Shown here: piece after piece, positions 1,922 to 28,914 of the stretch
Layout: every line of letters starts with the position of its first letter
Position numbering within the stretch: position 1 is the first letter of the stretch
From: Malassezia furfur
Taxonomy: Eukaryota
DNA length: 32,107 nt
NCBI GenBank assembly: GCA_052055015.1
Contig: JBQJIT010000088.1
Reading direction: 5' to 3' (one strand)
Program-made: the position numbers and the translations under genes
The notes under the pieces: generated by a model
What the model was told of the DNA's origin: nothing
The model's input: the letters and a program-made list of their open reading frames with translations, nothing else
The model's database searches: none

Positions 1922-2387
1922 CTAGTCTTCCCTATCGTACACCAGCCGGATCACCTCAGAACACCCCGAACACGCAAAATATGCCTGCCCATGCGCGATT
2001 TCAGCGGGGGTCACGACGTACTGCTGCCCACACCGGCAGGGGTAGGTCAGTCGCATTGTGTCGCCTTCGCCCTCGACATCCAGTGCATCAACGTCAACCG
2101 AGTCAGCGATGCGCGGCGCACGCGCTTGCTCCGCTTGTGCAAGGTATGTAGCACGGCGCGCCTCGTACGCCGCGTGCAGCGCGGGGTCCCGCAGCGTTTC
2201 ATATGCGGCGTTGATGAGCCGAATGCGCTCGTGCGTATCGGCGTGCGCCGCCTTGTCGGGGTGGTGCTGCGTCAGGCACCCAGAAACGTACCGTACGCGC
2301 CAGACGCAGATACGCTGCACGCATTGTCGCAGCGTCCGCGTCGCGGGCTATGCCCAGGACCGCGTACGCGTCCACTGCGCCGTCCAT
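1922..2387 (-). CDS. DPH4: Diphthamide biosynthesis protein Dph4/Jjj3 (J domain + CSL zinc finger), ~146 aa; exons 2387-2292, 2266-1922
   Basis: Removing a 25-nt intron joins MDGAVDAYAVLG...YLRLART to HHPDK...INAAYETLRDP (HPD motif). C-terminal YPCRCG...CSGCS CSL finger. Confidence 0.9.
2267..2291 (-). other. 25-nt spliceosomal intron in DPH4
   Basis: GTACGT-TTCTGGGTGC-CTGAC-GCAG; removal restores the frame of the J domain. Confidence 0.88.
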
Positions 2388-2464
2388 GCCCGCCGCGCAG
2401 AGGTGGAGGCGTCGGTGCGACCGTCGGGTGGAGGAGCCATGGCTCGCTATGTGCACACGCCTAC

Positions 2465-4381
2465 TTACCACTGGATCTTGGCGGCGTACTCGCGGATGGG
2501 CGAGTGAATTTTTTCCTCAACTTCATGGCCGCGACCGACAGCGACGCGCACCACGACATCGTTGAGGTCGTGCGCACCCAGGATGTCGACGTGATCGCCC
2601 GTCTTGGGCCCACCGCGAAGGTCCATTTCGTCAGGCTGATGCAAAATCTCACGCGTGATGACCTTAATACCGGCCGGGTTATAGCGCTTCATGTTCCACC
2701 CATGCACGCACATTGATCCGAGCGAAATAAGCGACACAGTGCCATCGCCCTCGCCGAGACGGCAGCCGGACTCTACCTTGGGCACCTCGTCCTCGAAGTT
2801 GATGCGCGCATCGATGCGGTTGGTCGGCACATACGGAAAGGCGCTCGTGTAATTGCTGAGGTGTTTGTCCTTTCCGGCATCGGTATGGTTGCCACCAATT
2901 CCGGGCGTATGGTCAGAGTACGCGTTGGGGCCCTTGCGAATCCAGTAGGAGCGCTCGGTCGGTTTTCCCCAGCCGTACACGCAGTAGATCTTGAGGTTAG
3001 GTGCGTTGGGTAGCGCAACCTCGAGGGGGTTCGACCACTTCGTCTGGTCCTTGTTGTTACGCTCGATTTGTTTGGGGTCTCGCTCGATGCCGTTGGAGTA
3101 ATTGGTCTTAACCATTTTCTGGAAGTCACTGGGGGCGTGCTGCATCAGCCACGGCAACGCCTGGTCCGCGGTAAATTTCTCGCTCTTGGCTGACTGCGAC
3201 GACTCCGGCGGATGGGCGTCCTCGGACACATTTCCGCGCGCGGCATACTCGTAGATGTGCGACTGCGTCACCTGCGCATCCGGGCGGTCGTCTGGCGCAC
3301 CCGTGTCATTACCCCACACGGCGTCGCCGCCCTTGATCAACATGCTGGCGCTCCCTGCCCATGAACGGAAGAGCGCGGCGCGCTCGTTTGAGCTAAAGAA
3401 GCGCTCGAGCAGGTACGAGAGAAGCGGCGGCACCTGGACCGTATCGCGCATCTCGCCTGTGAGCAGCGCGGCCATCGCCTTGGGCACACCCAGCATGGTG
3501 CCAGCAATGTTGATGAAGCCCTCAATGTGCTGGTCGATCCACGCGGCGCCGGCCTCCTGCTCAACCCACTTGAGGAAGTAAAGGGCAACGGTGGAGCCCA
3601 TGCTGTGCGCGCACAGCACCGTCTTTTCGCCCGACACCTTACTACTGAGCTCGATTTGCGTCTTGACCTGGGTGAAGAAGTGGTCGCGTTCCTCCAAGTT
3701 GTACATGCTCAGGCGCCAGTCATAGGCAGCCAGATAGATCATGTTGATGTCGTAACCGACCGCTGCGAGGTTCTGGATGATCTTACTCCAGATCCAGTAG
3801 CCCGCGGCAAAGTAGCTCGCGGCATCCAGACCCTTGGCGGCTCGCACTCGCACGCCGGGTGGGTCGAGGCCCGTGACGGTGTCGAGGGAGAGATGCTTGA
3901 CCCATTTTTCCTTGTCGAATAGGACATTGCGGATCATGGACGTCGACCCCCAGAGACGCTTGCGGAAGTACGCGGCCTCGTCCTCTGACGTCGTCCACGA
4001 CTCGAGGCCGGTGCTGACGATGCCGGGCATGAGGATCATGGGATGCTTTGGCTTGGCGCCCTCGGCGGCAAGCGAACGGCCGACCTGGAAGTCGAGCGTT
4101 TCGAACCAGCGGCGTGAGTCAGAGAACAGCTTGTCAAAGTGCTCCTTGACATCTGCGGGAAGCATCGAGTCGTACTTGAGTCCCTCAAAATTGAACTCTG
4201 GCAGCTGATAGTCAAACGCGTCAAGCAGGTCGGACATGCGCCTGGACATGCTCATATCACGGCTCACTAGGTATGATACGAGAGGTATTATGACGGTGAC
4301 GAGCACCACGACCACCTTCCAGGGTGTTATTCGCCGCCATGCGGGCGTGTCCGACCGTGCCTTGCTCGCCTGCTGCACCAT
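2465..4381 (-). CDS. LRO1: Phospholipid:diacylglycerol acyltransferase (LCAT/PDAT family), 638 aa
   Basis: N-terminal TM segment; PGIVSTGLESW, FRKRLWG, GYWIWSKII, AYDWRL, AHSMG nucleophile motif, GDGTV, HVDILG. Confidence 0.95.
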   Translation of the reverse strand: MVQQASKARSDTPAWRRITPWKVVVVLVTVIIPLVSYLVSRDMSMSRRMSDLLDAFDYQLPEFNFEGLKYDSMLPADVKEHFDKLFSDSRRWFETLDFQVGRSLAAEGAKPKHPMILMPGIVSTGLESWTTSEDEAAYFRKRLWGSTSMIRNVLFDKEKWVKHLSLDTVTGLDPPGVRVRAAKGLDAASYFAAGYWIWSKIIQNLAAVGYDINMIYLAAYDWRLSMYNLEERDHFFTQVKTQIELSSKVSGEKTVLCAHSMGSTVALYFLKWVEQEAGAAWIDQHIEGFINIAGTMLGVPKAMAALLTGEMRDTVQVPPLLSYLLERFFSSNERAALFRSWAGSASMLIKGGDAVWGNDTGAPDDRPDAQVTQSHIYEYAARGNVSEDAHPPESSQSAKSEKFTADQALPWLMQHAPSDFQKMVKTNYSNGIERDPKQIERNNKDQTKWSNPLEVALPNAPNLKIYCVYGWGKPTERSYWIRKGPNAYSDHTPGIGGNHTDAGKDKHLSNYTSAFPYVPTNRIDARINFEDEVPKVESGCRLGEGDGTVSLISLGSMCVHGWNMKRYNPAGIKVITREILHQPDEMDLRGGPKTGDHVDILGAHDLNDVVVRVAVGRGHEVEEKIHSPIREYAAKIQW

Positions 4382-4402
4382 CGAAGGCTCTAAAGTGGAG
4401 GT

Positions 4403-5528
4403 CTATCGCGTAAAAATGGTCACGACGTCGTCGTTGGCCACCACGTGGTTGAGCCCTACTTTTTGGGCCGAGGGGAACTTGCTCGATTTGCCGTACACGG
4501 ACGCGTACGCAAACTTGTCCACGAGCGCACGGTGCACGCCGTGACACACGTGCTCGATGGTGGCGCCTTTGCGCACGACGATCGGGTCGGTGAGGTCAGG
4601 GTGCTCGCCACGCTTCTTGGTATAGATGCGGTTCAGTGAGAGCTCTTCCCATATCCGGTCGATGAGGTAGTCGAGGTTCAGGTTGAGCTCGCAGCTGATC
4701 ACGACATTGCTTGGCTGGCTCGCGAGGCGCTCCATCTCTTCCATGCTGATGCGGTCGATCTTATTGTACACATAGAGGCAAGGCACGTACTTGCGGTTGC
4801 CAAGCACCACATCAATAAATTGGTCCACAGTGATGTCTTCGCGGATCATCACGTCACAATTATGGATTTTGTAGCCTTGCAGAATGGTGCGGATCATTTT
4901 CTCGTCGATCTTGGTGAGGGTGAGGCCCATGGCCTTGGTGATCACGATCCCGCCACCCGACTTCTTCTTGAGCTGCACGTCCGGTTTGGTCTGGTTCAGA
5001 CGGATGCCGACGTCCTCCAACTCCTTTTCGAGGAGTGGGCGCTGCTGCGCCGACTTGGTTGCGTCGAGCATCATAAGTACAAGGTCAGCCGTCTTGGCAA
5101 CGCTAACCACCTGGCGACCACGACCGCGGCCCTGCGCGGCGCCCTCAATGATCCCCGGCAAGTCGAGGATCTGAATCCGAGCACCCTCGTACTCGAGGAC
5201 GCCCGGAATGGCCGTCAGCGTGGTATACTCATACGCTGCTGCAGCGCTCTCGGTATCGGTAATGGTGTTGAGCAGTGTCGACTTGCCCACAGATGGGAAG
5301 CCGATGAGCACGACACGGGCGTTGCCCGACTTCATCACATCGAAGCCTTCGCCCGGCTTGCCCGACTTTTTGTCGGGCTCAAGCAACTGCATTCGGAGCT
5401 TGGCGAGCTTCGCACGCAGGTTCCCGATATGATACCTGGGTCAGTTGTATGACATACTCGGTCGCCTTGTTCTTCTGCGTGCGAGCCATTTCATGCTCGA
5501 TCTCCTTAATCTTTTCGACGACCCCCAT
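4403..5528 (-). CDS. RBG2: Developmentally regulated GTPase DRG2/Rbg2, ~367 aa; exons 5528-5458, 5435-4403
   Basis: MGVVEKIKEIEHEMARTQKNKATE joins YHIGNLRAKLAK across a 22-nt intron. GFPSVGKS, DLPGIIEGA, NKID motifs and C-terminal TGS domain. Confidence 0.95.
5436..5457 (-). other. 22-nt spliceosomal intron in RBG2
   Basis: GTATGT-CATACAA-CTGAC-CCAG; removal restores the conserved NKATEYH motif and the frame. Confidence 0.93.
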
Positions 5529-5623
5529 GGTGACGTTCGTGAGCCAGGGACCGCTCAGGGACAGCGCGGCACGTGACGTGCGCGTCGCGTTGCGCATCAA
5601 CACCCGCACGTTTCCGTCTCGCG

Positions 5624-7685
5624 ATGAGCTCGAGTGGATACCGCAGTTCGCCGCAGAGTGATACGCGCAAGCGCCAGACGCGGCGCGATGAGGTGCGTGT
5701 GCATACTGACGCAGGCCATCCGCAAGCGGATCGAGGGTGAGCTGAGCCGCAAGGCGGGCAAGCCTGCGACGCCGACGCAGCAGCGGCGCCGGAACCCCAT
5801 GACGGCGGGCACCGTGTCGGCGCTGCGTCCGCTGCCGGCGCTCACGGTGCCTCAGTCGATGAGTATAACGGATGCAAGCCAGCTGTGCGCGGCGAAGCGG
5901 ACCGACTGCGTGCTGGTGGTCGACGACGACGAGCACCTGGCGGGCATCTTCACGGCCAAGGACCTCGCGTACCGGATCGTTGCCGAGGGCCTCGACCCGC
6001 GCATGACGCCCGTGAGTGCAATCATGACCACGTCTCCGCTCGTGACGCGCGACACGACCAACGCCACCGAGGCACTTAACACCATGGTCATGCGCGGCTT
6101 CCGTCACCTGCCCGTTTGCAACGAGGAGGGTGACGTAGTCGGCCTGCTGGACATTGCCAAGGTGTTCTATGAGGCGCTTGAGAAACTTGAGCGTGCGCAC
6201 GGCTCTTCACAGAAGCTCTATACCGCGCTTGAGGGCGTGCAGAGCGAATGGGGCGGCAAGGCTGCTGGGCCGCAGCAGGCCATGATGCAGTACGTCGAGA
6301 CGTTGCGTGAGCGCATGAGTATGCCGGACCTCGCGTCGATCCTTGACTCGCGCACGTTGCCTGTCACGGTGGGCGTGCGCACGAGCGTGCGCGACGCAGC
6401 CCGGCTCATGAAAGAGTACCGCACGACGGCGGTGTGTGTGATGGAGAACCCGTCCAATTCAATGACCAATGCGCCCTCCGGCCAGGGCATCGTTACGGGC
6501 AAGATTGCCGGCATCTTTACGAGCAAAGACGTGGTGTTGCGCGTGATTGCCGCTGGGCTTGACCCCAAGACGTGTAGTGTGATCCGAGTGATGACCCCGC
6601 ACCCGGACACTGGCGCCCCCTCGCTGAGCATTCAAGAGGCGCTGCGGAAGATGCACGATGGGCGCTACCTGAACCTGCCCGTGATGGATGTGGACGCGCG
6701 CCTCGTCGGTGTGGTGGACGTGCTCAAGCTGACCTATGCGACGCTTGAGCAGATCAACAGCATGAGCGACGACGGCGAAGGCACCGGCGGCCCGATGTGG
6801 TCGCGCTTCTGGAACAGCTTTGGCCAGGGCACAGCGACTACGGACGACGGGAGTGCGGTGAGTGGCTCGCAGCGCCTGCCCGACTCGCAGCTGTCGCCGC
6901 AGACGGGTGCAGTGGATCTGTCCTCGGACGTACACCCGAACGACAGTGCGAGTGCCGTTGGCGGCGTGCTACAGGACGGCCAGTCGGCCTCGCTCGACGC
7001 GGCCGACGATGGCACGTATTTGTTCAAGTTTGTTACGCCGAGCGGGCGCGTGCACCGCTTCCAGGCGCGCTACGACAACTTTGACACGATCCGCGAAATT
7101 GTTTCGATCAAGCTCGCCGGGGATCCCTTCTTCCTGGATACTTCCGCAGGTGCGTCCCAGGTTGCGTCGCCGCCGGGTCCTCCGACGTTCGACGACGACG
7201 ATCGTTTGCCCATGCCGATATTTACACCGCCGCCGCCTACAGGTCCCCGTGTGAATCCGCCCGAGCTCGAGGATTACCATCTGGCGTACAAGGACGACGA
7301 GGACGATCTCGTGCTGATTACAGCAGACAGCGACGTTCAGGACGCCGTAGCGGTCGCCAAGCACCAGGGCAAGGACCGCGTGCTGCTCGTTCTGCATGGC
7401 GGCAAGTCTTGGGAGGAGGCCGCGAGCCGCTCGAGTGCGTACAGCGACTATGCGCAGTCCGCTGCGTCGCTTGCTTCGGCGCACCGCCAAAAGCACCGCA
7501 CGCCTACCGACGCGCCGGCGCGCGCCGCGGCAAGCGAGGTGCCGGGCGTGCCCAAGGCGACCGAAGGCAACAGCGACCTGTTGTTTGGCGTGATTCCCAA
7601 AGATTTGGCGCTGCCCGCCGCGATCAGCTTCTTGGGCGTGGCGGTGATTGGGGCCGTGGCGATGACGCGGCTCAGCGCGCGCTAG
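5624..7685 (+). CDS. CBS-domain (4x) + PB1 protein with C-terminal TM anchor (Mug70-like), ~679 aa; exons 5624-5692, 5715-7685
   Basis: Two CBS pairs (GIFTAKDL, GFRHLPV, GIFTSKDV, YLNLPV). PB1 with FKFVTPSGRVHRF and acidic YKDDEDDLVLI. Hydrophobic tail. Spliced N-terminus reads RKRQTRRDE|AIRKRIE. Confidence 0.88.
5693..5714 (+). other. 22-nt spliceosomal intron in the CBS-PB1 gene
   Basis: GTGCGT-GTGCATA-CTGAC-GCAG; links ATG 5624 in frame to the main ORF. Confidence 0.85.
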
Positions 7686-9859: not shown

Positions 9860-10218
9860 GGTAAAGGGCAGTTTCGATGGCGGAACACGTTCAACGACAG
9901 GCACTTTAAGTACTTTACCGCGGTGGCGCACGGAGGACCTGACCGGACGAAATTGTCGAACTGGGCGCTGTCGCCTGCCTAGAACGTCACGGAACGAATC
10001 TCTTTTGATTGGTCGGCTGAAGTTTAGGAAATAATTTATATCCAATCACAGCGTGCGTAGAGCTTAAGTTGGCCTGTAATCGAGTGCACGTTGGCGCAGT
10101 CCCCTCGCACAGGGCAGCCTGTAGTTCGCTTGGCAAGTGCACCCAATCAACCCAAACGGCCTAGTGCGGAGAAGTGACTGTGGCTGTGGGACCGATTCCT
10201 CTCCGTACAGCAGACTGC

Positions 10219-10512
10219 ATGAATCGAACTCCTCCTCGCAGCGATGTCGGCGAGAGGCGATGCGGACTACGCCGAAAAGGTACGACCCTCGCACGGACGT
10301 ATGAATGGATCGGTTGTATCGTATTGGCACTGGCGCTCTATGGACTCCTAGGGGGGTGGGAGGCGATGCGGGGCGGTACAGCCGGATCCTACGAGGTAGT
10401 CTGGCTTACATTTCCCATCAGCCTTGCCTACTGGTTTCCCCTCCTGATTCCGTTCTCAACCTACATTGTCATTGCGCGGTGGACCGGCGTCACGATGTTC
10501 CGCCATTCGTGA
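10219..10512 (+). CDS. PIG-Y-like subunit of the GPI-GlcNAc transferase, 97 aa
   Basis: Two hydrophobic segments; C-terminus YWFPLLIP...IARWTGVTMFRHS resembles the PIG-Y family ending (W.G..FRH[NS]). Confidence 0.7.
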   Translation: MNRTPPRSDVGERRCGLRRKGTTLARTYEWIGCIVLALALYGLLGGWEAMRGGTAGSYEVVWLTFPISLAYWFPLLIPFSTYIVIARWTGVTMFRHS

Positions 10513-10949: not shown

Positions 10950-11812
10950 TTAGTAGTACGGCTCCTCGTAGTAGCGGCGGCGGCTCGCAAGGCTGCTGGC
11001 TGCCAGCGCGGGAATGGCGACAAGCGTACAAGCGACCGACGCCCAAGTGAACCACAGCGAGTTGCCGTAGTCAAACACGTACGGCGCCGACGCGATGTCC
11101 TTGAACCGATGCACAATGTAAGTCCAAATGGAAGCACCACAGACAAGCATCACGAACGACAGGAACGAGAAGAAGGCCGCGATCACCAGGGCCGACATGT
11201 GGATCAGGCAGGTGATCAGGAAGGCGACACCCGCAAAGATGGTGCCGAGGAACACGAGATAGAACGCAGCAACGCTCTTCTCGTGGAGGTTCGAGATGCG
11301 CTTGTCGTTCTCGTAGAACGAGTTGACGCCGTTCGAGAAGGTCAGGCCCATGTCGGTGGTGCTGAGTTAGTACAGGGTATGGAGACGTACAGTGCCTTGA
11401 CAGGGTCAAACTCCTGGCCGAAACCACGGGGCGTGCACACGGGGTTGTTGTTCCCATAGTACGCACAGTGGCCTGGAGGTTAGTCATGTTTGCCAAGGCG
11501 GAGGGTACGTACTGTACAGACCCCACTTGACTTGTTGCGGGGGGCTGAGCGTCTGACCATTCGTCAGGCCAAGCGACTTCGCCACATCCGAAGCGACGTC
11601 AGTGGCAGTCCGGAGCAGGTTGTTGGGGTTGACCAAGTTGACGCGGGCGATACTAATGTTCCGTGCCACAATGTTGGTCGTGAGCTGACCCACGTTGGTG
11701 AGGATCATCAGCACCATGGCGCAGAACAAGAGAAATTGGGCTATTATGTGTTAGTAACAGCTCTTCATTTGCTGGGCAACGTACAGAACCCAATTGAGAA
11801 GAAACGCAGCAT
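10950..11812 (-). CDS. SUR7/PalI-family (claudin-like) tetraspan membrane protein, ~249 aa; exons 11812-11785, 11740-11513, 11472-11391, 11361-10950
   Basis: Three GTACGT...CTAAC...AG introns join the fragments into a 750-nt CDS. It contains the WGLYSHC...C claudin-like motif, four TM segments and a YGNSLWFTW motif. Confidence 0.85.
11362..11390 (-). other. 29-nt intron 3 of the SUR7/PalI gene
   Basis: GTACGTCTCCATACCCTGTA-CTAAC-TCAG. Confidence 0.85.
11473..11512 (-). other. 40-nt intron 2 of the SUR7/PalI gene
   Basis: GTACGT...A-CTAAC-CTCCAG; removal yields WGLYSHC. Confidence 0.88.
11741..11784 (-). other. 44-nt intron 1 of the SUR7/PalI gene
   Basis: GTACGT...TA-CTAAC-ACATAATAG; joins ATG 11812 in frame. 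Confidence 0.8.
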
Positions 11813-12192: not shown

Positions 12193-14622
12193 ATGTCGTC
12201 CTCGCCTCAGAACCGCTACATGGGCACTCCCAGCGGTGTCGCACGTAAATCTTCGATCTCATCGATGGACGATCGTAGCGATTACCAGCCAAACCCCGAC
12301 GAAGATGCGCAGCGCGAGCAAGATTTGGACGCCGCGCGGCTGATGAGCCGCGCGCGTGTACCGCATGGCGATGGGCCTGTACACGGTACGCTGGCTCACT
12401 AACACCCAGACACCTCGGCACACTGGCACGATGATGATGGTGCGCACGCGCGATCCCCTGCGAATGCGGACCATGCAGGGTCCATTCCAATCCGCGCGCG
12501 CAACGTCGCTGAGCAGTTCTACCGGCGGCAGCGCCGCGGCTCCAACGCCAGCGTGGATAGCGGGAGCCATTTTATTGACCACCGCAACCAGTCGCACTCG
12601 CTCTCGATGAACCCCAACTCGCCGCTGGCGATGCGCGCGATGCAGAATGCCCCGAGCATGTACGATTCGGGAAATGCCGCGCGCTCGCCGCACACGCACA
12701 CTCCCCGCGCAATGCGAGGCGAGTCTGCTGCACCGCCAATCAACTATGCAGCGCTGTCCTCGTCGCAGGAGGCACCCGCGTCGCCGGTCGCGGAGGAGGG
12801 CGCTCCGACGTCTGAGTTGGCCAACTCGACGCATACCGAGACCGACCGTGGTCGTGAGGACGACGTGTGTTTCCCTGCGGCGAGCAACATCGACGATGTG
12901 GTTCAGGATGAGCGCAAGGAGCCTGCGGCGCTGGACTCGCCGCCGCCTGGATATCCGTACACGTTTGACCTGAGTGCGGTCGAGACGTTCTGTGCCGAGG
13001 AGCGCGGCCATCTCGGCACGACGAACAACTGGCCTGAGGTGCCGGCGGTGGGCAGCCCCACGGAGAAGCACCGTGGGACGTACCGCGGCGGCCATTATGG
13101 CAAACCGGCCGACACGGGCGATTCGACGCTGTACAGCCGGCGGCCGCGGCAGCCCGTTGAGGGCCAGAGCCAGGGCAACAAGTTCCAGCGGAAGCTTGCC
13201 GCATTTGAGGGTGGCCACTCGTTTGGCTCGTCTTTTGCGCCCTCGTCGCACATGTCGGCGGCGGCGGCGGCGGCGGCCGAGCCTGCGGATGAGCCGGCGC
13301 GTCCGCTGCTGAAAGGCACGTCGCAGCACACCTACCACGGTGTGACACAGACCGAGCCGAGCGCCAATGATCTGCGCACTCGTGGCCGGGCCTACTCGCA
13401 GCCGTTTGGCAATGGCCGGAGCAAGACGCAGCCGCTGGCGCACGCCATGGCGGACAAGCCGTACCGCTTCACGTTCTACTCGAATGCGCTTCCCACGACC
13501 ATCCACGCACGCTACCTCTCGGAGCTGCCCGCGCAGGGCCAGTCGTTTGAGGATCTGCTCCGTGGCATTGTGCCCGAGCACGAGAAAAAGGCTGAGGAGG
13601 CTGCAGCGAAGCAGACGGCGCCCGTGCCGCTTGCCGGGGCGCTGCCGCGCGATGTGCAGCCTGAGCAAGGACTCGTGGCGAACTCGGACCCGTCGACGTG
13701 GTGGCTGGACGTGCTGTGCCCCACGGACCAAGAGATGAAGGTGCTGAGCCGCACGTTTGGGATCCACCCCCTCACCACCGAAGACATTCTCATGGAGGAG
13801 ACGCGCGAAAAGATTGAGCTGTTCCGCAACTACTACCTCGTGTGTTTCCGTTCCTTCGACCAGGACCCGTACAGCCCGACGTACCTCGAGCCGCTCAACA
13901 TGTACATTATCGTCTTCCGCGAAGGCACGCTCTCCTTCCACTTCCGGCACACGCCGCACCCCCAGAATGTGCGGCGGCGCATTAAGCAGCTGAAGGACTA
14001 CATCAACGTGACCTCGGACTGGATTTCATACGCGCTGATCGACGACATCACCGACGCCTTCGGCCCGCTCATCCAGGGCATCGAGTTTGAGGTCGACTCG
14101 ATCGATGAGCTGGTGCTCATCCTCAAGGAAGCGGAGCAGACGGACATGCTCCGCCGTATCGGCACGTGCCGCAAAAAAGTCATGGGCCTGCTGCGCCTGA
14201 TGGGCAACAAGGCGGACGTCGTCAAGGGTCTCGCCAAGCGCTGCAACGAGTACTGGGCGATCGCGCCGCGCTCCGACATTGGGCTGTACCTGTCCGATAT
14301 CCAGGACCACTTGATCACCATGACGCAAAACTTGAACCACTACGAAATGATCCTTTCGCGCTCGCACAGCAACTACCTCGCGCAGATCAGCATCGAGATG
14401 ACCGACGCCAACAACCAGATCAACGACGTGCTGAGCAAGCTGACCGCGCTCGGTACCGTGATTGTTCCCATGAACGTCATCACCGGTCTCTGGGGTATGA
14501 ACGTCCATGTCCCTGGCCAGGATGTGTCCAATTTGCACTGGTTCGGTGGGATTTGCGCCGTGATGGTGGTGATTGCTGTGTCGGGCTACATCACCACGGT
14601 GCGCTACCTCGAGCGTCGTTGA
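12193..14622 (+). CDS. ALR1: CorA-family Mg2+ transporter (Alr1/Alr2-like), ~801 aa; exons 12193-12385, 12410-14622
   Basis: RFTFYS, WWLDVLCPT, FGIHPLTTEDI, REKIELF, GLWGMNV (GMN signature), two C-terminal TMs, long disordered N-terminus. Confidence 0.93.
12386..12409 (+). other. 24-nt intron in ALR1 containing an in-frame TAA
   Basis: GTACGC-TGGCTCA-CTAAC-ACCCAG; removal fuses ORF 12193 with ORF 12553-14622 without stops. Confidence 0.85.
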
Positions 14623-14644
14623 GTACCATAGCTTTCCATTCCGG

Positions 14645-18738: not shown

Positions 18739-18753
18739 GGCCGTGCTGCGTCG

Positions 18754-21700
18754 CTACACGAAATAGTCGCTACGGCCCAGCGTAAAGTCGTTCACCTCCT
18801 GAATGCGGTCGCCAAACTGGCGCTGGTCCTCGGCCCAGGTGTCCTGGTGCGTGCGCCGGAACTCGGCGGCGCAGTGGCGCACCGTGGTGCTGATCGGCAC
18901 GGGGTCGTCCGAGTGCGGCGCGATGGTGTCGAGCACCAGATCGGGCATCCACGCGGGCACCTCGTACGGGAATGCGGCGACGAGCGCCGTGGCGCCCAGC
19001 AGCGCCGCGTGCAGCGCCAGGAGCTGCGCGTCGTAGTGCGGCGCGCCGCGCCGCGGCACGGGACGCGCCACGACCTGCGCCACAAAGCGTGCGCGCAGCG
19101 TGTGCACGAGCGAGCGCTGCGAGCACCGCACGAGGCCCGCGAGCGTCGTCGCGGCCATCTCGCGCACCTCGAGGTGCCGGTCGGCGAGCAGGTCGAGCAG
19201 CACATGGAACACCTCCTGCACGACGTCGGGCGGCAGGTAGAACAGGCTGGGTTAGTCGCGCGCCTACTCACTTTTGGAAGTAGACAATTTGCAGCAGTGG
19301 CAAGGCGTCGAGGCGCGCATGCCACGAGTCGTGCGCATCGCGCGCAAGGGCGAGCAGCGTGCGCACGAGCGGCACGGCCTGCGTCGCGGAAAAGGGGTAC
19401 GAGGCCACCTTGATCAGCACCGACTTGGCGATCGCCGCGAGCTCGGGGTTGTCGCGCAGCTGGTACATGGCAAACAGGTCCGGCACAAGCGCCACGACCT
19501 CGGTGCCCATCGGCCCGAGGCGGTGGTCGTCGAGGCTCAGCGACACCCACACTGCGCCGTTCATCGCCGCACGATCGTACAGCGAGGTGCCCAGTGCGCT
19601 CGGGACGCGCTCGCCACGCCACACGCCCAGGTCCTTGGACAGCTGTACGCACCGCGCGCGCACCCCCGCGTCGTGCGCGAGCAGCGAGCCGGAGGCCGCG
19701 CGCCCCGCGTCGAGGAACGCGTCGACGCTCGCAAACGCGGGCACCGCGTGCGCGTATTCGAGCTCGACGAGGTTCTCGGCGAGCGCCTTGCGCACCTCTT
19801 GGTAGTCGTGCCCAAAGTGCGCAAAGCACCGCGCACGCACCGCGTCGGCGCCCCACGCGTCAAACTTGTGCTCGAGCGAGCGCAGGGCACCGGCGAGCAG
19901 CAGCTGCGCGTGTGCCTGTTCCAGCGGGCTGTTCCGCGCCGAGATCAAGCTCGACGCCGCGTGCTCCACGACAAAGGTGAGCAGGCTGCGAGCGCGCCGC
20001 GGGTCGCGTTGCTTGTACACGTATTCCACGCACATCTGCCACGACGGCTGCGAGTCGGGCGTGCTGGTGGTGAGCACGCGCGGCATCCACGCGTCGCACC
20101 AGTGCCACAGCCGTGCCTGGTCCGCGAGCGGCCAGTGCTTCGCGCCGCGAATGACGCCGCCGACCAGCTCGGCGGCGGCGCGGTGCTTGTGCCGGTCGCG
20201 CTCGGTCACGAGCTCATCGACAAGCGGCGCGACGTCGTCCAGCACGCTCACGCCCAGCATCTGCGCCAGCGTCTTGACGAACGACGTCGTCTCTGCCGAG
20301 AGGTAGTCGCGCTCGATCTCTTGCGCCAGGTAGCCGCCAAACGCGCGCCACCACGCCCCGTCGAGCGCCGTACGTACGCTGTCGAGCGCCGCGGCCGACG
20401 CCGCCTCCCACGCGACTGGCGGCACGTCCTCCGCGGGCGGCGCATACCACGTGTCGCACGCGCCGCTTGCGAGCCACGGGAGCGCCGCCGCCTTGTCGCG
20501 CAGGCGCGACGCGGGCGTCAGCGGCTCGGCGAGTGCCGCGATGCGTGCAGCACGCTCGGCATCGGACAGCGGCTCGTCCGCGTGTTCGGTGTGCTTGAGC
20601 GGGTGCGACGCCTGCTCCGTGTACAGCGCCGCGCCCTCGGCCAACGTACGCAGCTTGATCCAGTACAGCAGGCGCGCAAGCGCGGTTTGCGCATGCTTGC
20701 GCATGATGGGGTTCGGCGAGGTCGCCTCGCGCGCAAAGTACGCGCCGAGACGGGCGTCGAGGGGTGCGTCGCGGCGCAGCAGGGCACACAGCGCGCGCAG
20801 CGCAAAGATGGCAAACGCCCAGTGCGTCGTAGGCGCGGTCGCCACCGCATACACCTCGTCAACGAGCGCGGCATGCTCTTCCTCCGCCGAGGCGATGCGC
20901 GCCGCGCGCGCCTCGGCCACCGCTGCACACACCGCCGCCGGCGTCCGCGCGGCCGTACCGGCGATGGCCGCGAGCGCCGCGGTGCTTGTCGCGAGCGCGT
21001 CTGTCGGCACGTACGCGGAGCGCACCGCGGGCTCGCACAGGTGCGCCACCGCGTCGCCCAGCAAGCTGCGCACCAGTTTCTGGATGCTCGGCTTGGCGTG
21101 CTCAATGTGCAGCAGCGCCAGGACCACCGGCCGCGTGAACCGCGCGTTGCGTGCAACGGTGCGTGCAAAGCCCTTGTTCGCGAGGACGTACAGCGCGCCC
21201 TTTACGCGGTCGTCTAGCTCGCCGGGGCGCAGTGTATGCAGGATAGGCGCGAGGCACAGCGCGCGCGTCCCATCGTAGGCGACGCTGACACTCGCGAGTG
21301 TGGATTGGGCAAGCTTGCGAATCGCCACGTAGTTCGACAGGCACAAACCCACAAGCTGTTCGGTGAGTGCGTCGGTGCGTGGCGTGCGCTGTGCAAACGC
21401 ATGAGCGAGGCGTACGCGCGACAGGTGGTACAGTGCCGCGCGGCGCACCCAGAACACGCGGGGGTACGCGCGCTGCTTGGGCCACGTGCGACCGATCGTG
21501 CGGAAGAAAGTGACCGACTTGGCCAGGCCACGCAGCTCGTCGGCATGATAGCCGGACTGCACGAGATAGGTGCGGATCGCGCGCACGAGCAGCTTTGCCG
21601 CGTCGATCTGGTCCTCGGCGCCGGTCGTATGGAGGTCAACCGCCGCGTGGTGCAGCGTGGCGCCAAACGCGTCGGCAAACGCAGCGAGCTGGTCGTAGCG

Positions 21701-24596
21701 CGCGTCGCCGCGGCGCAGCGCATACCCGCATGCGATCTGTAATGGGCCGGGCACAAACGCCCGCGCCTCATCACCGAGATCGGAGGGGAAGGGCGTGTCG
21801 GGACTCTTGCCTGCGCCGTCTTCGGCGCTGTGTGGTTCCGACAGTGCCGACAGCGCCGCATACGCATAGCGTACGAGAAGCAGGCGCCGGCAAAAGTCGT
21901 TGTACCACGTCGCGTCGCGCTTCGACGTGGCGAGCTGCGCATCTAGTGCGTGCAGCGCCGGCGCGACAATGCGCTCCAGCACCTCGAGTGCGAAGGAAAT
22001 TTCGTCGTCGCTCGGGGTGTGCCAGTCAATGTGCACCTGCGCGACCGTGTACAGCTTGCCCCATGCCCGGTAGGCATCCGTAGCATACGCGTCAGTGCCC
22101 CATTCGCTCGGATTAACGCTGCGCTGCTCGGCCGGATACAGCGTGCCGAGCGAGAACAATAGCCGCTGCACAAGCTTGGCCGTGAGCAGGTAGCCGCGCT
22201 CCGTAAAGCACCGCTCCGCCAGCAGCGCACACGTGTCGAGCAGCTGCGCGCGGTGCGGCAACACATTGCGTCCCGCAAACATCAGCGCGCCGTTCAGCAT
22301 CGAAATGTGCCAGTGCAGCGCCGTGTCTTGCTCGAGCGGCACGCTGGTGCTGGTCGTGCGCGTCGACGATGCACCGTGCGCTAGCTCCACGGCAATGCGC
22401 TCGCAGCACACGGGCACGACGCGCGCGAGCACCGCAGCGCTGTCGGCGCGCGCAAAGCACCCGATCAGCGAGCCGATCACCTTGACACCGCTTGCGGCGA
22501 CGGTTGTCCGTGCGTACGCCAGCACCTCGTCGAGCAGGTGCGCAAACAGCGCTGGGCTCAGTGCACTGCAGAACACGTCGCACGTTGCAACGAGCGTGTG
22601 CAGCACCATCTCCTCGTTTTTCTCGCCAATCTTGCCGCTTTTTCCCTCGTCAGGCAGGTTGTCGACGAGGTGCAAGATGCGCTGGAGGAAGGCGGAGCAC
22701 CATGCGTCCAAGTCGGCAGAGGCGAGGCGCACCGCATAGTCCTCCTCACCGCGCGTCGTGTGCGTATCGTCGTCGACCGCACATGCGTCGTTATCGTCGG
22801 CATGCCCGCCGTCGTGCTCACTGTAGTCGCCAAAGCGCACCGTCATCGACACAGCCAGCACAAACATGCACGTGCTCACCGTCTTCATCGGGTCGTTCAG
22901 ATCGATGCCAGGCAGGCACAGGTGCAGCAGAGGCACGAGGTGCCGCGCCCCGGGCGCGTACAGCTTGCGCGACACAAGCGGCTGAGCAAGCGCCGCAAGC
23001 GCCGAGATTACCGACGTGGTGCGGTGGGTCGTCTCGAGCGTTTCGAGCGAGGAGTAGGCTCGCTGCAATACCGCCGGCACGATCAGCTCGGGCTGCAAAT
23101 AGGCCATGCGTTTCAGCGACGTCTGTGCGGCCAGGATTGTCAGCGGGTCCTTAGAAAACATGCTCAGCAGGCACACAGTGCGCAGCGTGCGCACAAATTC
23201 AACCTTGATTGCCGGCGTAAGCCGCGCAGCATATGGCGTCGTGCATTCGGGGCGCTCTTCCTCCTTGCACCGCCGCGCAAACTCCCACGTGAGGTGCTGT
23301 ACAAAGTTGGCCAGCTGCACCTGCCACATACCCCAATTCGACGGGTGGAAGTAGCTCTCGGTCGCCTGCACAAACTTGGCGAGCTGGTCCAGCGCCTTGC
23401 ACCCGGCCAAGTAAGTTGATTGTGGCGCGACGTGCACGGCGCCAGCATCGGCGTCCACGGCGCGCGCCTCCGCGCGCGCGTCCAACGGGGGGGCATCGGG
23501 TGCCATGCTGTACACAAGGATTACCGCAAACGAGTGCAGGCGGTCACTCGGTTTTTTGATGCGCAGCGTCTGGCTGGTGGCCAGGGCATCTGCACCAGTG
23601 CGCACATTGGCCGACTGCGCCATCAGCGTCGCGTTTGCCGCCTTGTTCGCGCCGACGGGCAAGCCCGCGGACCGCAGGCACTTGGTCATAATCAGTGCAA
23701 ACTGTGCATCGGTAAATAGCCCCGTCTCTTGCCAGAGTACTGGCTTCGCGTCATCCTTGCACGCTGCAGGTGCATCCAGCAGCTGGTGTTCAGCAAGGCG
23801 CGCGAGGTGGTCGAGCATTTGGTCGTCAAACAGCGACGACTTGAATGTCTCCCACAGCCTGAACATGGCCGGAAGCCATGCCTGAGGCTCGTCCAGCGGC
23901 AGGAAATGCACCAGGAATGCCTGCGTTGCGATCACCGAGTTGAGGTCACCACCGTCCATCAGCGGCAGCACGGTCTGTAGCATATTGTGCGCTTCACGCG
24001 GCGAAAAGAAACGCTGTGCATATTCGGCCACGTCTAGAAGCACATTGCTGATTTTGCTCGTGGACGCCTTGCGGCCCTTGTGAAAGATTTCGCGCGCCAG
24101 TACGTCGTATAGCGGCCGCCAAGGCAGCTCGAGATCACGGCGGTCCAACTCACGTTTGGGGCTGCGTCAGTGCATTTTCAAAGGCGTACCGAAGCAGACG
24201 GATACACATGCTCCCAGCCGTCTCGGTGAAACGCGCGTCCAGAGACGTCATTACGGCTAGATCATAGTAGAAACGCGCGAGTTGCGCGCGCCAAGTGCGT
24301 GGGACGGGGTATTTGAGCGACAGTAGGCTCTGCAAGTACCGGTTCCATCGCACAAAGCCTACATCAAAGTCCTGTAAGGAGACGCAGTCCACCAGTTTCC
24401 CAATAGCCGTCGCGAGCTGGGTCTCAAACTCGGCTTGCGTCTCGCACGCGTACGGTAGTTTCTCGGCGAATACATGCGCACGCTTCGGGTCGCGCGCATG
24501 TGGGAGCGGCGCATCCTCGAGGATGACACCGGCTTCCTCGTCCTCGGCGTCAAAGTCCTCGACGGCCTCGAAGTCGAGAAAGTCCAGCTCGTCCAT
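18754..24596 (-). CDS. BLM10: Proteasome activator Blm10/PA200, ~1929 aa; exons 24596-24190, 24161-19272, 19246-18754
   Basis: ESYFHPSNWG, LETTHRT, LPGIDLNDPMKT, HLEVREMAATTLAG, AFPYEVP.W, EFRRTHQDTW, terminal YFV. Two introns join three ORFs in frame. Confidence 0.95.
19247..19271 (-). other. 25-nt intron 2 of BLM10
   Basis: GTGAGT-AGGCGCGCGA-CTAAC-CCAG; gives VYFQNLFYL. Confidence 0.9.
24162..24189 (-). other. 28-nt intron 1 of BLM10
   Basis: GTACGC-CTTTGAAAATGCA-CTGAC-GCAG; gives RLLRPKRELDRRDL. Confidence 0.88.
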
Positions 24597-24893
24597 CGTC
24601 GTGCGAAGCAGCACGATCGGCCACGCGTCTGGGGAAGTGGAGGCCACGCCGCGTCAGCAGCCCAGCCGATCAACCGCTGCGGCGACGTCACACACGTTAG
24701 CATTCTTTTAATGCGTCCTTGAGATTGATCAGCATCAGCTTCGCTAAATGAACAAGACATGCTATGGAGCCATCCGATCATGTAGTAGTACATAAATACC
24801 ACTATGCCATCAAAACCGATGACCAAATCACCCTAAAGCGTCTCTCCGAGACATTAAATGGGCTGGCCAGCGGTCTGTGTCATAGGGCACCTC

Positions 24894-26597
24894 TTAAGGC
24901 TCAGCCTGCGTCTGCTTGACCTCGCCCGCCTCGCCATCGGCCTTGATCTCGCTCTGGAGACCCTCGTCACGCTCGTTAATGATCGCGTCGAGCTCCTCGG
25001 CGTTGAGGTGGGGCGCAGTAAGCGACTTGTAGCAGGCCGTCGTCATAAAGTGCTTGGCGTTCCAGAAGCCCTCCTTGTGCTGGTCGGCAAAGAAGAGGTC
25101 CATCTCCTCAAGACCACGCTGCTTGGTCTCGGGGAAGAACATGTACACAAACGGAATGAACATCACGTTGAAGGCACCGAACATGGTGAACGTGTGGTTG
25201 CGCAGGTTCTGGAAGGCCGGGGGCGAAATCATGACGACCGTGAAGTTCCAGATCCAGTTAGAGCACGTCGACAGCGCAGCGGCCGGAGCACGAATGCGAA
25301 TGGGCGTAATCTCCGGCGGGTAGAGCCAGGTCATGCCGAGCCAGCCGAACGACCATGGCACGAAGTACAGGTAGATAAAGGCCTCGGCAGTCTTACCGTA
25401 GGAGATGAAGTCCTCCTTCGGCAGGTTGTTGTCGTTGCCCTGCATGACTTTGTAGATCATACCCGACATGATCGCGAAGCAGAGCGCCATACCAGCAGCG
25501 CACCAGATCATGAGGCGGCGGCGACCAGCAATGTCAATGATGAACACGGCCACCGAGGCAGCCAGGAAGTAGAGCACACCACTGCCACACACAAGGATAC
25601 GCGTAGGGATATCGTCCGAGTTGACCATCTGGAACACCGTGTTGGCGTAGTAGGTCAGGTTGTTGATACCCGTCAGCTGCTGGAACATCTGGGCCGTGCA
25701 GGCAATGCAGACACGGTAGAAGTTCTGCTCGGGACCCATCGTGAACAGCTCCTTGTACGAGAAGGCACCCATAGCAACCTCCTGCTTGTGGATCGAGTCC
25801 TCCAGCGCCTTGAGCTCCGAAACGACCTCAAAGTCATCCTCAGGAACGTCACGCAGACGCGCAATCACCGAGCGTGCCTGGTCGGACATGCCCTTCTTCA
25901 CGAGCCAGCGGGGCGACTCGGGGATGAAGAACACGCCGGCAAGCAGAACAAGGGCAAAGGCAGCCTGGAAGGCAATGGGGAAACGCCACTGAACACTGTT
26001 CGTACGCAGAAAGTAGAAGCCGAAGTCGATCCAGTACGAGATCATGACACCACCCGCGAGCAGCGCACCCTCAACGAATACAAGGAAACCACGGTTCTTA
26101 GGCTTCGACAGCTCCGACTGAAGCATCGGAATCGTAGCCGTGTCCAGACCGTTACCAATACCAGCAATCACACGACCAACGGTGAAAGCAGGGAGTTTGT
26201 CATCGGCAACCATAATGATCGTACCAATGATCATGATCGATGAGCCAGCAACCACTGAGGAGCGACGACCAATCTGGTCACCCTTCCACAATACAAGAAT
26301 GGAACCGATCAGAGCACCCAGCTCGTAGCAGCCGACAATCGCACCCTGGATGTTATCAGAGTATTCGCCAGGGTGAAGAGGCACACCACGGTAGGAATCG
26401 GGATACGATCCCTCAACTTGGTAACGAGCAATCTGGGGCATAGTAGAGGCCATCATGGGCTCCTCAATCAGAGCCGACATGACACCCTGGTCATAACCGA
26501 AGAGCAGGAAACCACAACCACAAACAAAGGCGATGAGCACCGTCAGCGAAGTGCCACGGATGTACTGTGCACCCGGCACTTGCGGGAATTGAAACAT
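24894..26597 (-). CDS. MFS sugar porter (Stl1-like polyol/sugar:H+ symporter), 567 aa
   Basis: FGYDQG, D.IGRR, PESPRWL, QQLTGINN, GRRRL, PETK sugar-porter motifs; 12-TM pattern. Confidence 0.93.
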   Translation of the reverse strand: MFQFPQVPGAQYIRGTSLTVLIAFVCGCGFLLFGYDQGVMSALIEEPMMASTMPQIARYQVEGSYPDSYRGVPLHPGEYSDNIQGAIVGCYELGALIGSILVLWKGDQIGRRSSVVAGSSIMIIGTIIMVADDKLPAFTVGRVIAGIGNGLDTATIPMLQSELSKPKNRGFLVFVEGALLAGGVMISYWIDFGFYFLRTNSVQWRFPIAFQAAFALVLLAGVFFIPESPRWLVKKGMSDQARSVIARLRDVPEDDFEVVSELKALEDSIHKQEVAMGAFSYKELFTMGPEQNFYRVCIACTAQMFQQLTGINNLTYYANTVFQMVNSDDIPTRILVCGSGVLYFLAASVAVFIIDIAGRRRLMIWCAAGMALCFAIMSGMIYKVMQGNDNNLPKEDFISYGKTAEAFIYLYFVPWSFGWLGMTWLYPPEITPIRIRAPAAALSTCSNWIWNFTVVMISPPAFQNLRNHTFTMFGAFNVMFIPFVYMFFPETKQRGLEEMDLFFADQHKEGFWNAKHFMTTACYKSLTAPHLNAEELDAIINERDEGLQSEIKADGEAGEVKQTQAEP

Positions 26598-27240
26598 CTT
26601 GAAGGCTTTTGGACTTGAGTGGTAACTAGTGCAATCTTCAACTTGATGCGTTCAGAACGTCGAACAAGTCGGGAGCGTCGAAAGCTGCATTCATTGTTTG
26701 TTTGTATTTTTATACCCTGCTCTCCAGCTTCATTTTTCATACCTATGCATGACAGCGGATTGGCGGAACTTTTTTTTTCCTCCCGCATTCAACGACGTAT
26801 GCAACTGGAGAAAACTACTGCGGCGGACATTATGCATGACGTAGCTCCACAAATTCGCTTCAGATGAGGCTTTCTGTCAAGCTTGCGTCTTAACGCTAGA
26901 ACGCCGACAGATTCTACGCGTTCATATTGGACACGGAGGGTTAAGCAGCTCAGCGACTTTTCCGAACGACGGGCCAAGAATTCAAGATTTCGTCCACTTG
27001 CGTATTTGGCTCGTGTATTGCCACAGTTTCTTCCCATCCAACCGATCCCGATCACATCCGAAGCGGCGTTTTATGAAAAAATATGTGACTAAGCACGCAG
27101 TGCCGCAGCGGATCCGGAAAATGAAACTTTAACAACGTAATCTCCGAGCACGTCTCGGACGGTTAGTCATGCTGACTCAGGTGCCATGCGTGCCTAGCCC
27201 CTGGCAACCCCACGAGATTTAGCATCTTAGGCTCGCTTCG

Positions 27241-28341
27241 ATGACGACGGGCGCCAAAATCGTGGCAACGTGGGCGTTGGCGTTGCTCACGTTGACTGCG
27301 TCGGTCGTCGCGTCGGATCTAGCAGATCTTGTGACTTCTACGGTGCCCAACACCACCGTGCTCGACACCTCAACGACGACCAAGTCGCTTTCGAAACGCG
27401 GCGGCGCCTTTTCAGGCAGGGCGACGTGGTACGATGTCGAAACCTGGGAAGCAGGGTATGTGGTTTGCTTACATATCAGGGCATGCGGTCAGTACATCGA
27501 CAACGACATGCACATTGTCGCGCTCAACGAGCCAATGTACGGCAATCTCGACTCTCGGTCAAGTTGGTGCGGCAAGCATATCATGATCGCCAATGGTCTC
27601 AAGACAGCGCGCGCAGTGATTATGGATGCATGCCCCGAGACGCAGCAGTGCCACTACGGTGCACTGGACATGAGCATGTCGCTTTTCCAAGTCTTTCACG
27701 ATCTGAATCTCGGCGTCTTTGACATCACCTGGTGGGTCATTGACGGCAGCGGCAACGGAAACAGCGGTGGCAGCAGCAGTGGAAGCAGTGGAAGCAGCAG
27801 CAGCAGCAACGACAACGACAATGGCAGTAAAGGCAGCAGCAGCAGCGGCAGCAGCAATAACAACAACAACAATGGCAGCAAAGGCAGCAGCAGCGACGGC
27901 GACGATGATGATGATGACGGCGATTCATCGTCGTCGCGCGCGGCGCCGACCAATGCCCAGCAGTCTGCGTCCCGTGCCGCCAAGGCTAAGGCTGCTTCGT
28001 CGTCGTCTGCATCGGCCGTGTCGGCCGCGTCGAAGCAGGAAGCCGAACAGTCTGCATCGCGCGCGTCGGTGCTGTTGTCCAAGTCATCGGCGAGTGCTTC
28101 GTCGGCATCCAAGGCAAGTGCGGCGAGCCACTCAAGCCGCTCGAGCAGCTCGTCTAGCTCACAATCGAGCTCAAGCAGCTCGCAATCGAGCTCGACCAGC
28201 AGCGGCGCGGGCATTGCCCGGCCCGGCACCGGCACCGGCGGCGGTGCAAGCAACGATGACCCGCAGGCGGGGAATCTGCAAAACTTTGTACGGGTACTGA
28301 ATGGGATGTCGATGCTGGTGCACGCAGCTGCAGGCAGCTAA
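27241..28341 (+). CDS. Secreted RlpA-like DPBB (expansin/loosenin-like) protein with Ser/Gly/Asn-rich tail; probable exons 27241-27455, 27480-28341 (~358 aa)
   Basis: Signal peptide, KR site, GRATWY...GACG, IVALN, CGK.I.I, IMDACP, ALDMS..LF, ITW; low-complexity Ser-rich tail. Confidence 0.88.
   Translation: MTTGAKIVATWALALLTLTASVVASDLADLVTSTVPNTTVLDTSTTTKSLSKRGGAFSGRATWYDVETWEAGYVVCLHIRACGQYIDNDMHIVALNEPMYGNLDSRSSWCGKHIMIANGLKTARAVIMDACPETQQCHYGALDMSMSLFQVFHDLNLGVFDITWWVIDGSGNGNSGGSSSGSSGSSSSSNDNDNGSKGSSSSGSSNNNNNNGSKGSSSDGDDDDDDGDSSSSRAAPTNAQQSASRAAKAKAASSSSASAVSAASKQEAEQSASRASVLLSKSSASASSASKASAASHSSRSSSSSSSQSSSSSSQSSSTSSGAGIARPGTGTGGGASNDDPQAGNLQNFVRVLNGMSMLVHAAAGS
27456..27479 (+). other. 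24-nt in-frame, stop-free intron in the DPBB gene
   Basis: GTATGT-GGTTTG-CTTAC-ATATCAG; removal restores the family motif AGACG. Confidence 0.78.
27745..28210 (+). repeat. Coding low-complexity repeats ((AGC)n, (AAC)n, (GAT)n, TCGAGC-type units) with a duplicated NGSKGSSS unit
   Basis: AATGGCAG(T/C)AAAGGCAGCAGCAGC occurs twice (~27820 and ~27871); poly-Ser, poly-Asn and poly-Asp tracts. Confidence 0.85.
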
Positions 28342-28418
28342 CCGGTCGACTTGGGCAGTTGTATGTGTATATCGTATATAGTGTGCAGAGCCAGTCGGGT
28401 TCCTTGCTTGTGGAGGTC

Positions 28419-28914
28419 ATGGTGCGCGTGCCGCGTGGCGTTGAGCAGTTGGTGACGGCCTATCTTACGGGTGCACTAGTGCAGCGGGTACGTGGTACAC
28501 TCACGCAGTTGAGCCGCTCGCCAACGGTGCTACGTGCGACGGAGCGCATTCTGCATGAATGGGATACGTTGCCCCAACGGCTTGCCGGGCGGCCCGTGCC
28601 CTATACACCGCGCGACTATGGACAGCCCGAGGGGCGGGTGAGCGATGTTGGTACGTTGTACCGCTAACGCAGACCATGGTGAGCCACACGATGAGCCATC
28701 TCCGTTTCCTGTGTCGGGAAAGTACGCTGGCGACGCCGCGCGGATGCAGCGTGGCAATACGTCAAGTCGTGGCAATGCAAGGCCGGAAGATGCGCGCGAC
28801 GATGCGCCACGGCGCACGCGTGCGCGGCCGGCGCGCGACCCTCAGGATGCCGAGCGCGATGCTGTTGCGCGCGAGATCCGCGCGCTGCAGGACAAGCTGC
28901 GGCGTGGCGCGTAG
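28419..28914 (+). CDS. Small protein, ~150 aa, N-terminus resembling Mrx7/DUF2697; exons 28419-28487, 28509-28650, 28673-28914
   Basis: Two canonical micro-introns join ORFs 28359-28667 and 28645-28914. The spliced LVQRLSRSPTVLRATERI resembles the L..SP.F.R helix of Mrx7-like proteins (weak, from memory). C-terminal helix AREIRALQDKLR. Confidence 0.6.
28488..28508 (+). other. Candidate 21-nt in-frame, stop-free intron
   Basis: GTACGT-GGTACA-CTCAC-GCAG; same architecture as the other micro-introns, but not required for frame. Confidence 0.65.
28651..28672 (+). other. 22-nt intron
   Basis: GTACGT-TGTACCG-CTAAC-GCAG; removal skips TAA 28665-28667 and enters the ORF ending at 28914. Confidence 0.82.

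Follow-up and report, generated by a model that had tools for sequence, protein, structure and literature searches.

The stretch of DNA considered here (the window) comprises 32,107 nucleotides (nt) of contig JBQJIT010000088.1 from the Malassezia furfur assembly GCA_052055015.1, and its subject is a set of very short introns in the genes that it carries. These genes include a J-domain and CSL zinc-finger gene, DRG2/Rbg2, a CBS/PB1-domain gene, a SUR7-family gene, an ALR1/CorA transporter gene, the proteasome activator gene Blm10/PA200, a secreted expansin-like gene and a small gene beside it. An initial annotation had proposed twelve GT-AG introns of 25, 22, 22, 29, 40, 44, 24, 25, 28, 24, 21 and 22 nt in the window, several of them required to restore conserved motifs and many of them ending in a branch point joined to the acceptor. 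All twelve GT...AG segments were located with the same lengths and at the same positions, distributed over these eight genes and ranging from 21 to 44 nt (Table 1).

Table 1. Predicted introns of the window, and one shorter candidate, with their positions, genes and signals
Feature	Position	Strand	Length (nt)	Phase	Gene	5' site	3' signal	Read-through
Intron 1	2267-2291	(-)	25	0	J-domain + CSL zinc-finger (DPH4-like) gene	GTACGT	CTGAC-G-CAG	
Intron 2	5436-5457	(-)	22	2	DRG2/Rbg2	GTATGT	CTGAC-C-CAG	
Intron 3	5693-5714	(+)	22	0	CBS/PB1-domain gene	GTGCGT	CTGAC-G-CAG	
Intron 4	11362-11390	(-)	29	2	SUR7-family gene	GTACGT	CTAAC-T-CAG	
Intron 5	11473-11512	(-)	40	1	SUR7-family gene		CTAAC + 3 bases + CAG	
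Intron 6	11741-11784	(-)	44	1	SUR7-family gene		CTAAC + 6 bases + TAG	
Intron 7	12386-12409	(+)	24	1	ALR1/CorA Mg2+ transporter gene	GTACGC	CTAAC + 3 bases + CAG	in-frame TAA
Intron 8	19247-19271	(-)	25	2	Blm10/PA200, near 3' end	GTGAGT	CTAAC-C-CAG	
Intron 9	24162-24189	(-)	28	2	Blm10/PA200, near 5' end	GTACGC	CTGAC-G-CAG	
Intron 10	27456-27479	(+)	24	2	secreted expansin-like gene	GTATGT	CTTAC + 4 bases + CAG	in frame, stop-free
Intron 11	28488-28508	(+)	21	0	small gene	GTACGT	CTCAC-G-CAG	in frame, stop-free
Intron 12	28651-28672	(+)	22	1	small gene of intron 11	GTACGT	CTAAC-G-CAG	in-frame TAA
Candidate 13th intron	27162-27180	(+)	19		5' leader of gene starting 27241	GTTAGT	4-base gap, CTGAC-T-CAG	

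The signals of the twelve segments are highly uniform. Each begins with GTNNGY, the hexamer being GTACGT in six cases, GTATGT and GTACGC in two each, and GTGCGT and GTGAGT in one each, and each has a CTNAC box within 10 bases of its 3' end, directly preceded by an A in nine of the twelve. Eight (introns 1, 2, 3, 4, 8, 9, 11 and 12) end in CTNAC-N-CAG, so that exactly five bases remain after the presumed branch A; in the other four the distance from box to YAG is 3, 3, 4 and 6 bases. There is no pyrimidine tract, as only 1-6 bases lie between box and YAG in all twelve and the spacers hold no consistent run of pyrimidines. The tabulation thus bears out the earlier description of eight introns ending in CT(G/A/C)AC-N-CAG and devoid of a polypyrimidine tract. 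The proposed separation of the U1 and U2 sites by only about 6-7 nt was seen in the 21-24-nt introns; in six of the twelve the 5' hexamer and the CTNAC box stand 6-7 bases apart.

Comparison with randomized sequence indicates that it is the placement of the signals, more than their number, that is unusual. On its two strands together the window has nine copies of the nine-base motif CTNACNCAG; 100 shuffles averaged 4.19 copies, and five of them reached nine. Eight of the nine, however, are the ends of the eight introns named above, the ninth is the end of the 19-nt candidate at 27162-27180, and the motif occurs nowhere else in the window. When the 5' signal is added, so that the composite pattern becomes GTNNGY, 3-30 bases and CTNACNCAG, there are 14 start positions at nine distinct ends, whereas 300 first-order Markov simulations averaged 1.28 and never exceeded 6, an excess of approximately tenfold. 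The 19-nt candidate, an addition to the list of the initial annotation, has a 5' site at an intron-like distance, but its gap between 5' site and box is below the six-base minimum of the twelve introns. It is also shorter than any of them, and its splicing would remove an upstream ATG.

Frame continuity in related Malassezia DNA

In order to compare the window with its relatives, metagenome contigs were scanned with the ALR1 protein. This gave nine loci, four of which (L001 to L004) are syntenic with the window from about 1,600 to 26,000. L003 and L004 belong to what is here called species A, with a guanine-plus-cytosine (GC) content of 52-53% and genes that are uninterrupted throughout. L001 and L002 are from M. 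sympodialis or a nearly identical organism, since the curated DRG protein of that species threads onto L002 without a mismatch in 367 residues. The genes of the window were spliced in silico, translated and compared with these four loci.

For introns 1-6, 8 and 9 the uninterrupted frames of the relatives cross all eight junctions without a gap. The Pfam DnaJ profile is divided by intron 1, with positions 1-26 in the first exon and 28-63 in the second, and the uninterrupted open reading frame (ORF) of L004 passes over the junction gap-free. Similarly, the first exon of the DRG2 gene corresponds to residues 1-22 of yeast Rbg2 (7nrc_So) and the second to residues 24-365, residue 23 being the codon split by intron 2; the L004 ortholog is intronless and continuous here, and L002 has an intron of 25 nt at the same site. 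At intron 3 the L004 protein reads continuously through RRDE|AIRKRIE and L002 has a 23-nt intron at the site. Within the SUR7-family gene, of which exon 4 gives a weak match to Pfam SUR7 (E 0.00016 and 21.9 bits, below the curated 29.6), the junction of intron 4 is crossed gap-free by uninterrupted ORFs in all of L001 to L004. Intron 5 joins WGLY|SHC where the four loci have WGLY|NYC, and its retention would lead to an in-frame stop. Intron 6 is matched by continuous sequence in L003 and L004 and by a 26-nt intron at the same site in L002. Both Blm10 junctions are gap-free, L001 and L004 being continuous over intron 8 (QIVY(F/V)Q|(N/H)L), which has Pfam PSME4 domains on both sides, and over intron 9. 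The two sides of intron 7 share one frame in L001 to L004; alternative 5' sites for this intron were rejected on phase and on the absence of G at position +5.

The restoration of motifs described in the initial annotation is confirmed, as seen in the DnaJ profile, the continuity of the DRG protein with Rbg2, the WGLY|SHC motif of the SUR7 protein and the Blm10 frame. When the three introns discussed further below are included, all twelve genes models regain an open frame that is collinear with homologs once the segment is taken out, at varying strength, and on these strong comparative grounds the twelve predicted introns are judged to be real. At the sites of introns 2, 3 and 6 the M. sympodialis-like DNA holds introns of other length and sequence (25, 23 and 26 nt).

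Intron content differs considerably between the loci. Species A is without all nine of the window introns that can be compared, and three sites, those of introns 2, 3 and 6, are all that the M. sympodialis-like DNA has in common with the window. On the other hand the latter has 12 introns where the window has none, six of them in the DRG gene, three in the CBS gene, two in an acyl-CoA dehydrogenase gene and one in a PIG-M-like gene.

Signal spacing and the proposed reading

The M. sympodialis-like loci provide a second sample in which the spacing of the signals can be examined. Threading of P0297, the curated M. sympodialis protein, through the DRG gene of L002 (1146-2271, (-)) defines seven introns of 25, 24, 23, 25, 25, 24 and 23 nt, with the same signal build as in the window and with gaps between box and YAG of 2, 2, 1, 3, 2, 2 and 1 bases; a three-intron model of this gene gave a broken ORF and was replaced by the exact threading. 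Eight more introns of L001 and L002, taken from breaks between tblastn segments and unthreaded, measure 32, 32, 23, 26, 31, 26, 23 and 26 nt and have gaps of 4, 7, 1, 3, 1, 3, 1 and 3 bases. The gap is accordingly 1-3 bases in 13 of the 15 and exactly one base in five. In these loci 23 nt is both the shortest and the commonest length and goes with a gap of 8 bases between 5' site and box, while the counterparts in the window are 21-22 nt long with a gap of 6-7 bases. Although the samples are small, this suggests that minimum intron lengths are species-specific.

Taken together, the evidence makes it very probable that the twelve segments are ordinary U2-type GT-AG spliceosomal introns that have been reduced to little beyond their signals. 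Such an intron would be made up of a 5' splice site of six bases (of the GTAYGY type), a spacer of 6-24 bases, an (A)CTNAC box and, mostly one base further on, YAG. The 5' site would pair with U1 and later with U6, and the box with U2, leaving its last A bulged. After branching, the first AG downstream would be taken as acceptor without the help of a pyrimidine tract, lying five bases past the branch A in eight of the twelve; Yarrowia lipolytica demonstrates that an AG so close to the branch can be used (Mekouar et al. 2010, PMC2911113). The lower limit of length appears to depend on a minimum gap, of about six bases, between 5' site and branch box, which gives 21-22 nt in the window and 23 nt in the M. 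sympodialis-like DNA. That these segments are removed from RNA in this species, and that the early spliceosome assembles on sites lying so close together, is what we infer from the DNA.

A broader claim may be built on this, namely that in Malassezia, and in the M. furfur lineage above all, introns have been pushed to a hard, species-specific limit of length (21-22 nt in the window and 23 nt in M. sympodialis) which acts through a gap of 6-8 bases from 5' site to box, and that a joined signal like that of Yarrowia has evolved independently in a genus that has kept roughly one intron per gene. We regard this joint claim as tentative, and the balance of probability is against it. If it were true, it would break the pattern by which rigid 3' structures are confined to intron-poor genomes, and it would mean that the early spliceosome is unable to hold U1 and the branch-site factors in the usual way.

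Several points weigh against reading the twelve segments in the manner proposed here. The 'fused' arrangement is a mode, since one-base spacing is found in 8 of 12 introns in the window but in no more than 5 of the 15 introns of the M. sympodialis-like DNA, where eight of the 15 are the unthreaded ones; the total sample for spacing is 27 introns and not a genome. The distances between branch and acceptor cluster tightly around a mode, which is more pronounced in the species of the window, and do not follow a fixed rule. Of the fixed distance between branch and AG that was originally claimed, what stands is the mode, as four of the twelve introns differ from it. The branch nucleotide itself is presumably, to judge by the motif, the adenosine of CTNAC. 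Of the twelve junctions that of intron 7 is the least precise, because conservation around it is poor and the alignment has a gap of 9-10 residues just upstream. Among the members of the DRG and expansin-like clusters no assembled ORF of this species was seen that equals the spliced form, the search having covered two protein clusters whole and, in a third, the DRG cluster, 40 of the 197 members, with 15 listed. Partial retention is conceivable for introns 10 and 11, which are stop-free and in frame, and intron 11 is kept in frame by one public M. furfur record, from strain CBS 9595.

Among the alternatives, the one that survives best concerns the machinery more than the introns. The composite signal, and a distance of 6-7 bases between 5' site and box, might need a remodelled early spliceosome, as the initial annotation had suggested, one in which U2AF, SF1/BBP, Prp40, SF3b or U1 has been changed or lost. 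The six introns with only 6-7 bases from hexamer to box, and the want of a pyrimidine tract in every one of the twelve, would be in keeping with this, and for Yarrowia it has been suggested that juxtaposed signals could make it simpler for the spliceosome to assemble (PMC2911113). Introns as small as these, or smaller, are however spliced elsewhere, for example in the Bigelowiella nucleomorph with its median of 19 nt (PMC2483917), and because other lineages do this, small size alone is no proof of altered parts. Nor do the window and the related loci contain any of the components concerned: Rfam and transfer RNA scans of the window and an Rfam scan of L001 to L004 gave zero matches, and thus no small nuclear RNA, and there is no splicing factor gene within the window or these loci. 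A remodelled spliceosome is in our view doubtful on present evidence, and ordinary U2-type splicing of much reduced introns remains the preferred reading.

Introns 10 to 12, public gene models and neighboring genes

A second alternative is to regard some of the segments, chiefly introns 10 and 11, as retained or optionally spliced coding sequence and not as constitutive introns. As both can be read through in frame without a stop, the reading frame is uninformative for them, and the decision must come from homologs. The alignment for intron 10 took in 15 of the 120 listed homologs. Exactly the eight residues that this segment would encode are absent from 13 of the 14 other aligned proteins, giving ..AG|ACG.. 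at the junction, and their presence would break a conserved G-ACG stretch. The homolog P0003 has an insert of 11 residues here that resembles an in-frame intron at the orthologous site. The seven residues of intron 11 are similarly missing from all five of the homologs that span the site (M. brasiliensis, M. restricta, M. vespertilionis and two unnamed). Both segments, moreover, have the full set of splice signals. The CBS 9595 record speaks for retention in that it holds the 21-nt segment in frame. This record (486 residues; region 27241-28913, (+)) is a near-exact match to the expansin-like gene with intron 10 removed, but it fuses that gene to the neighboring small gene and so looks like an annotation error. 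Retention or optional splicing is thus very improbable.

For intron 12, the spliced model is 97% identical to a 150-residue record of M. brasiliensis, and the frame downstream of it is confirmed by the conserved HDEPSP and C-terminal motifs of M. restricta. The M. restricta form of the small gene is also found among plain ORF calls from assembled contigs, and for this reason the gene is probably uninterrupted in that species.

Short insertions that break the frame are a common type of assembly error in general, but as an account of these segments assembly or sequencing error can be practically dismissed, and the suspicion of assembly indels is contradicted, by the paired splice signals on all twelve, by the exact recurrence of the read-through translations in independently assembled contigs (P0121, P0175 and the truncated DRG ORFs of 329 residues) and by the introns of different sequence at the orthologous sites of introns 2, 3 and 6 in another species.

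Introns as small as these are handled unevenly in the public records of this clade. The M. brasiliensis record has the 21- and 22-nt introns (11 and 12) both removed. One M. furfur DRG2 record of 329 residues, of which 327 are identical to the window (gene 4406-5528, (-)), starts at Met39, the 22-nt intron having been missed and the conserved first exon lost with it, and in the DRG record of M. obtusa the N-terminus is aberrant. Default minimum intron sizes in aligners for RNA sequencing (RNA-seq) can miss introns of this length, and a signal model consisting of GTNNGY, at least 6 bases, CTNAC, 1-3 bases and YAG would mend gene models of this kind.

The window as a whole is gene-dense, with a GC content of 53-70%, and comes from a chromosome of a basidiomycete yeast; the nearest named proteins are those of M. 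furfur and M. brasiliensis, and it is accordingly assigned to the M. furfur complex. The GC content climbs to 69-70% between 16000 and 22000, over the Blm10 gene and a gene which we take to be SelO-like, compared with 53-57% around 24-28 kilobases. The window begins (1-230, (+)) inside a long GAA/GAG, glutamate-rich coding repeat on the N-terminal side of a gene that ends at 1916 (+) and is presumably an Ulp1-type SUMO protease. Between a secreted-protein gene and the SUR7 gene lies a small gene of about 98 codons (10217-10512, (+)), apparently for a two-helix membrane protein, the C-terminal half of which is conserved in all four of L001 to L004. No intron is necessary in this gene, and a possible one near 10244 was rejected in favor of one open, conserved frame from an upstream ATG. 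The tail of the expansin-like gene (27750-28250, (+)) is long and rich in Ser, Asn and Asp, and near-identical strains differ within it by single residues, for example in an Asp run. Neither the expansin-like protein nor the small protein matched any Pfam family at E <= 0.01.

Comparison with known systems

Very short introns are already a recognized trait of Malassezia, being described as such in a review of the genus (PMC7426719). The curated gene set of M. sympodialis contains 5350 introns that average 30 base pairs (bp), and RNA-seq supports 5271 of these (Zhu et al. 2017, PMC5389616, Table 2), and for M. restricta a median of 30 bp is tabulated (PMC9241646). As the mean of 30 goes with a maximum above 1 kilobase, most M. 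sympodialis introns would lie in the twenties of nucleotides, and this agrees with the threaded DRG introns. The M. sympodialis set is of the same genus and size class as the introns of the window, and its curated DRG protein runs through seven introns of 23-25 nt with the same signals. The differences are that the shortest intron of the M. sympodialis-like DNA is 23 nt as against 21-22 nt here, and that one-base spacing is commoner here. Any novelty of the 21-22-nt class, a matter which the initial annotation had referred to the literature, is accordingly reduced, both by this mean of 30 bp with introns of 23-25 nt and by the M. brasiliensis record in which introns of 21 and 22 nt are already removed.

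The arrangement of the signals is a different matter. The main text of PMC5389616 does not use the word 'branch' and gives no minimum length in words, the supplement having only a figure of size distribution. Branch sites and signal spacing are likewise unmentioned in the accessible text of PMC5389616, PMC3560662, PMC4634964, PMC10410736, PMC9241646 and PMC7426719 and of a fungal survey (PMC8476143), and Malassezia is not among the species of a study of 3' intron structure in 50 species (PMC2483917). No description of branch-site position, splice-signal logo or signal spacing in Malassezia was found in the searchable full-text literature, a body that leaves subscription papers and bioRxiv supplements outside. 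A branch and acceptor arrangement of the Yarrowia type thus appears to be undescribed for Malassezia, whereas very short introns are already documented.

With respect to size, ciliates have introns of roughly the 20-30-nt class. The same approximate class is found in the nucleomorph of Bigelowiella natans (median 19 nt) and in Encephalitozoon cuniculi (median 32 nt; PMC2483917). The nucleomorph introns differ in being AT-rich and in being nearly devoid of a recognizable branch motif (1.39%; PMC2483917), while those of the window are GC-balanced and have a strict branch box.

With respect to the 3' signal, Yarrowia, Giardia and Trichomonas are known to place the branch at a set distance from the AG without a pyrimidine tract (Irimia & Roy 2008, PMC2483917). 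Giardia lamblia and Trichomonas vaginalis resemble the window in having the box anchored near the terminal AG and no pyrimidine tract, but their genomes have only a handful of introns (PMC2483917). By the count used in that study, the branch A and the AG are separated by 4 nt (ACAC) in these two organisms and by 2 nt (AC) in Yarrowia, compared with 3 nt (C-N-C) in eight of the twelve introns here. If borne out genome-wide, the combination in a basidiomycete of a Yarrowia-like signal with approximately one intron in each gene would offer a useful natural experiment on how tightly 5' site, branch and acceptor can be packed, and on whether a rigid 3' signal goes together with having few introns (PMC2483917). 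The closest likeness is to Yarrowia lipolytica, which has a CTAAC-type box, often as ACTAAC, followed after a mean of one base by the acceptor, and again no pyrimidine tract (PMC2911113, PMC2483917). Its introns are long (median 204 nt, PMC2483917) and start with GTGAGT, whereas those described here are 21-44 nt and start with GTAYGY; here any base (G, A, C or T) may stand in the middle of the box, unlike in Yarrowia, and the one-base spacing is a mode (8/12) where that of Yarrowia is near-universal. Because the Malassezia lineage belongs to the Basidiomycota and Yarrowia to the Ascomycota, the likeness between them would be convergent.

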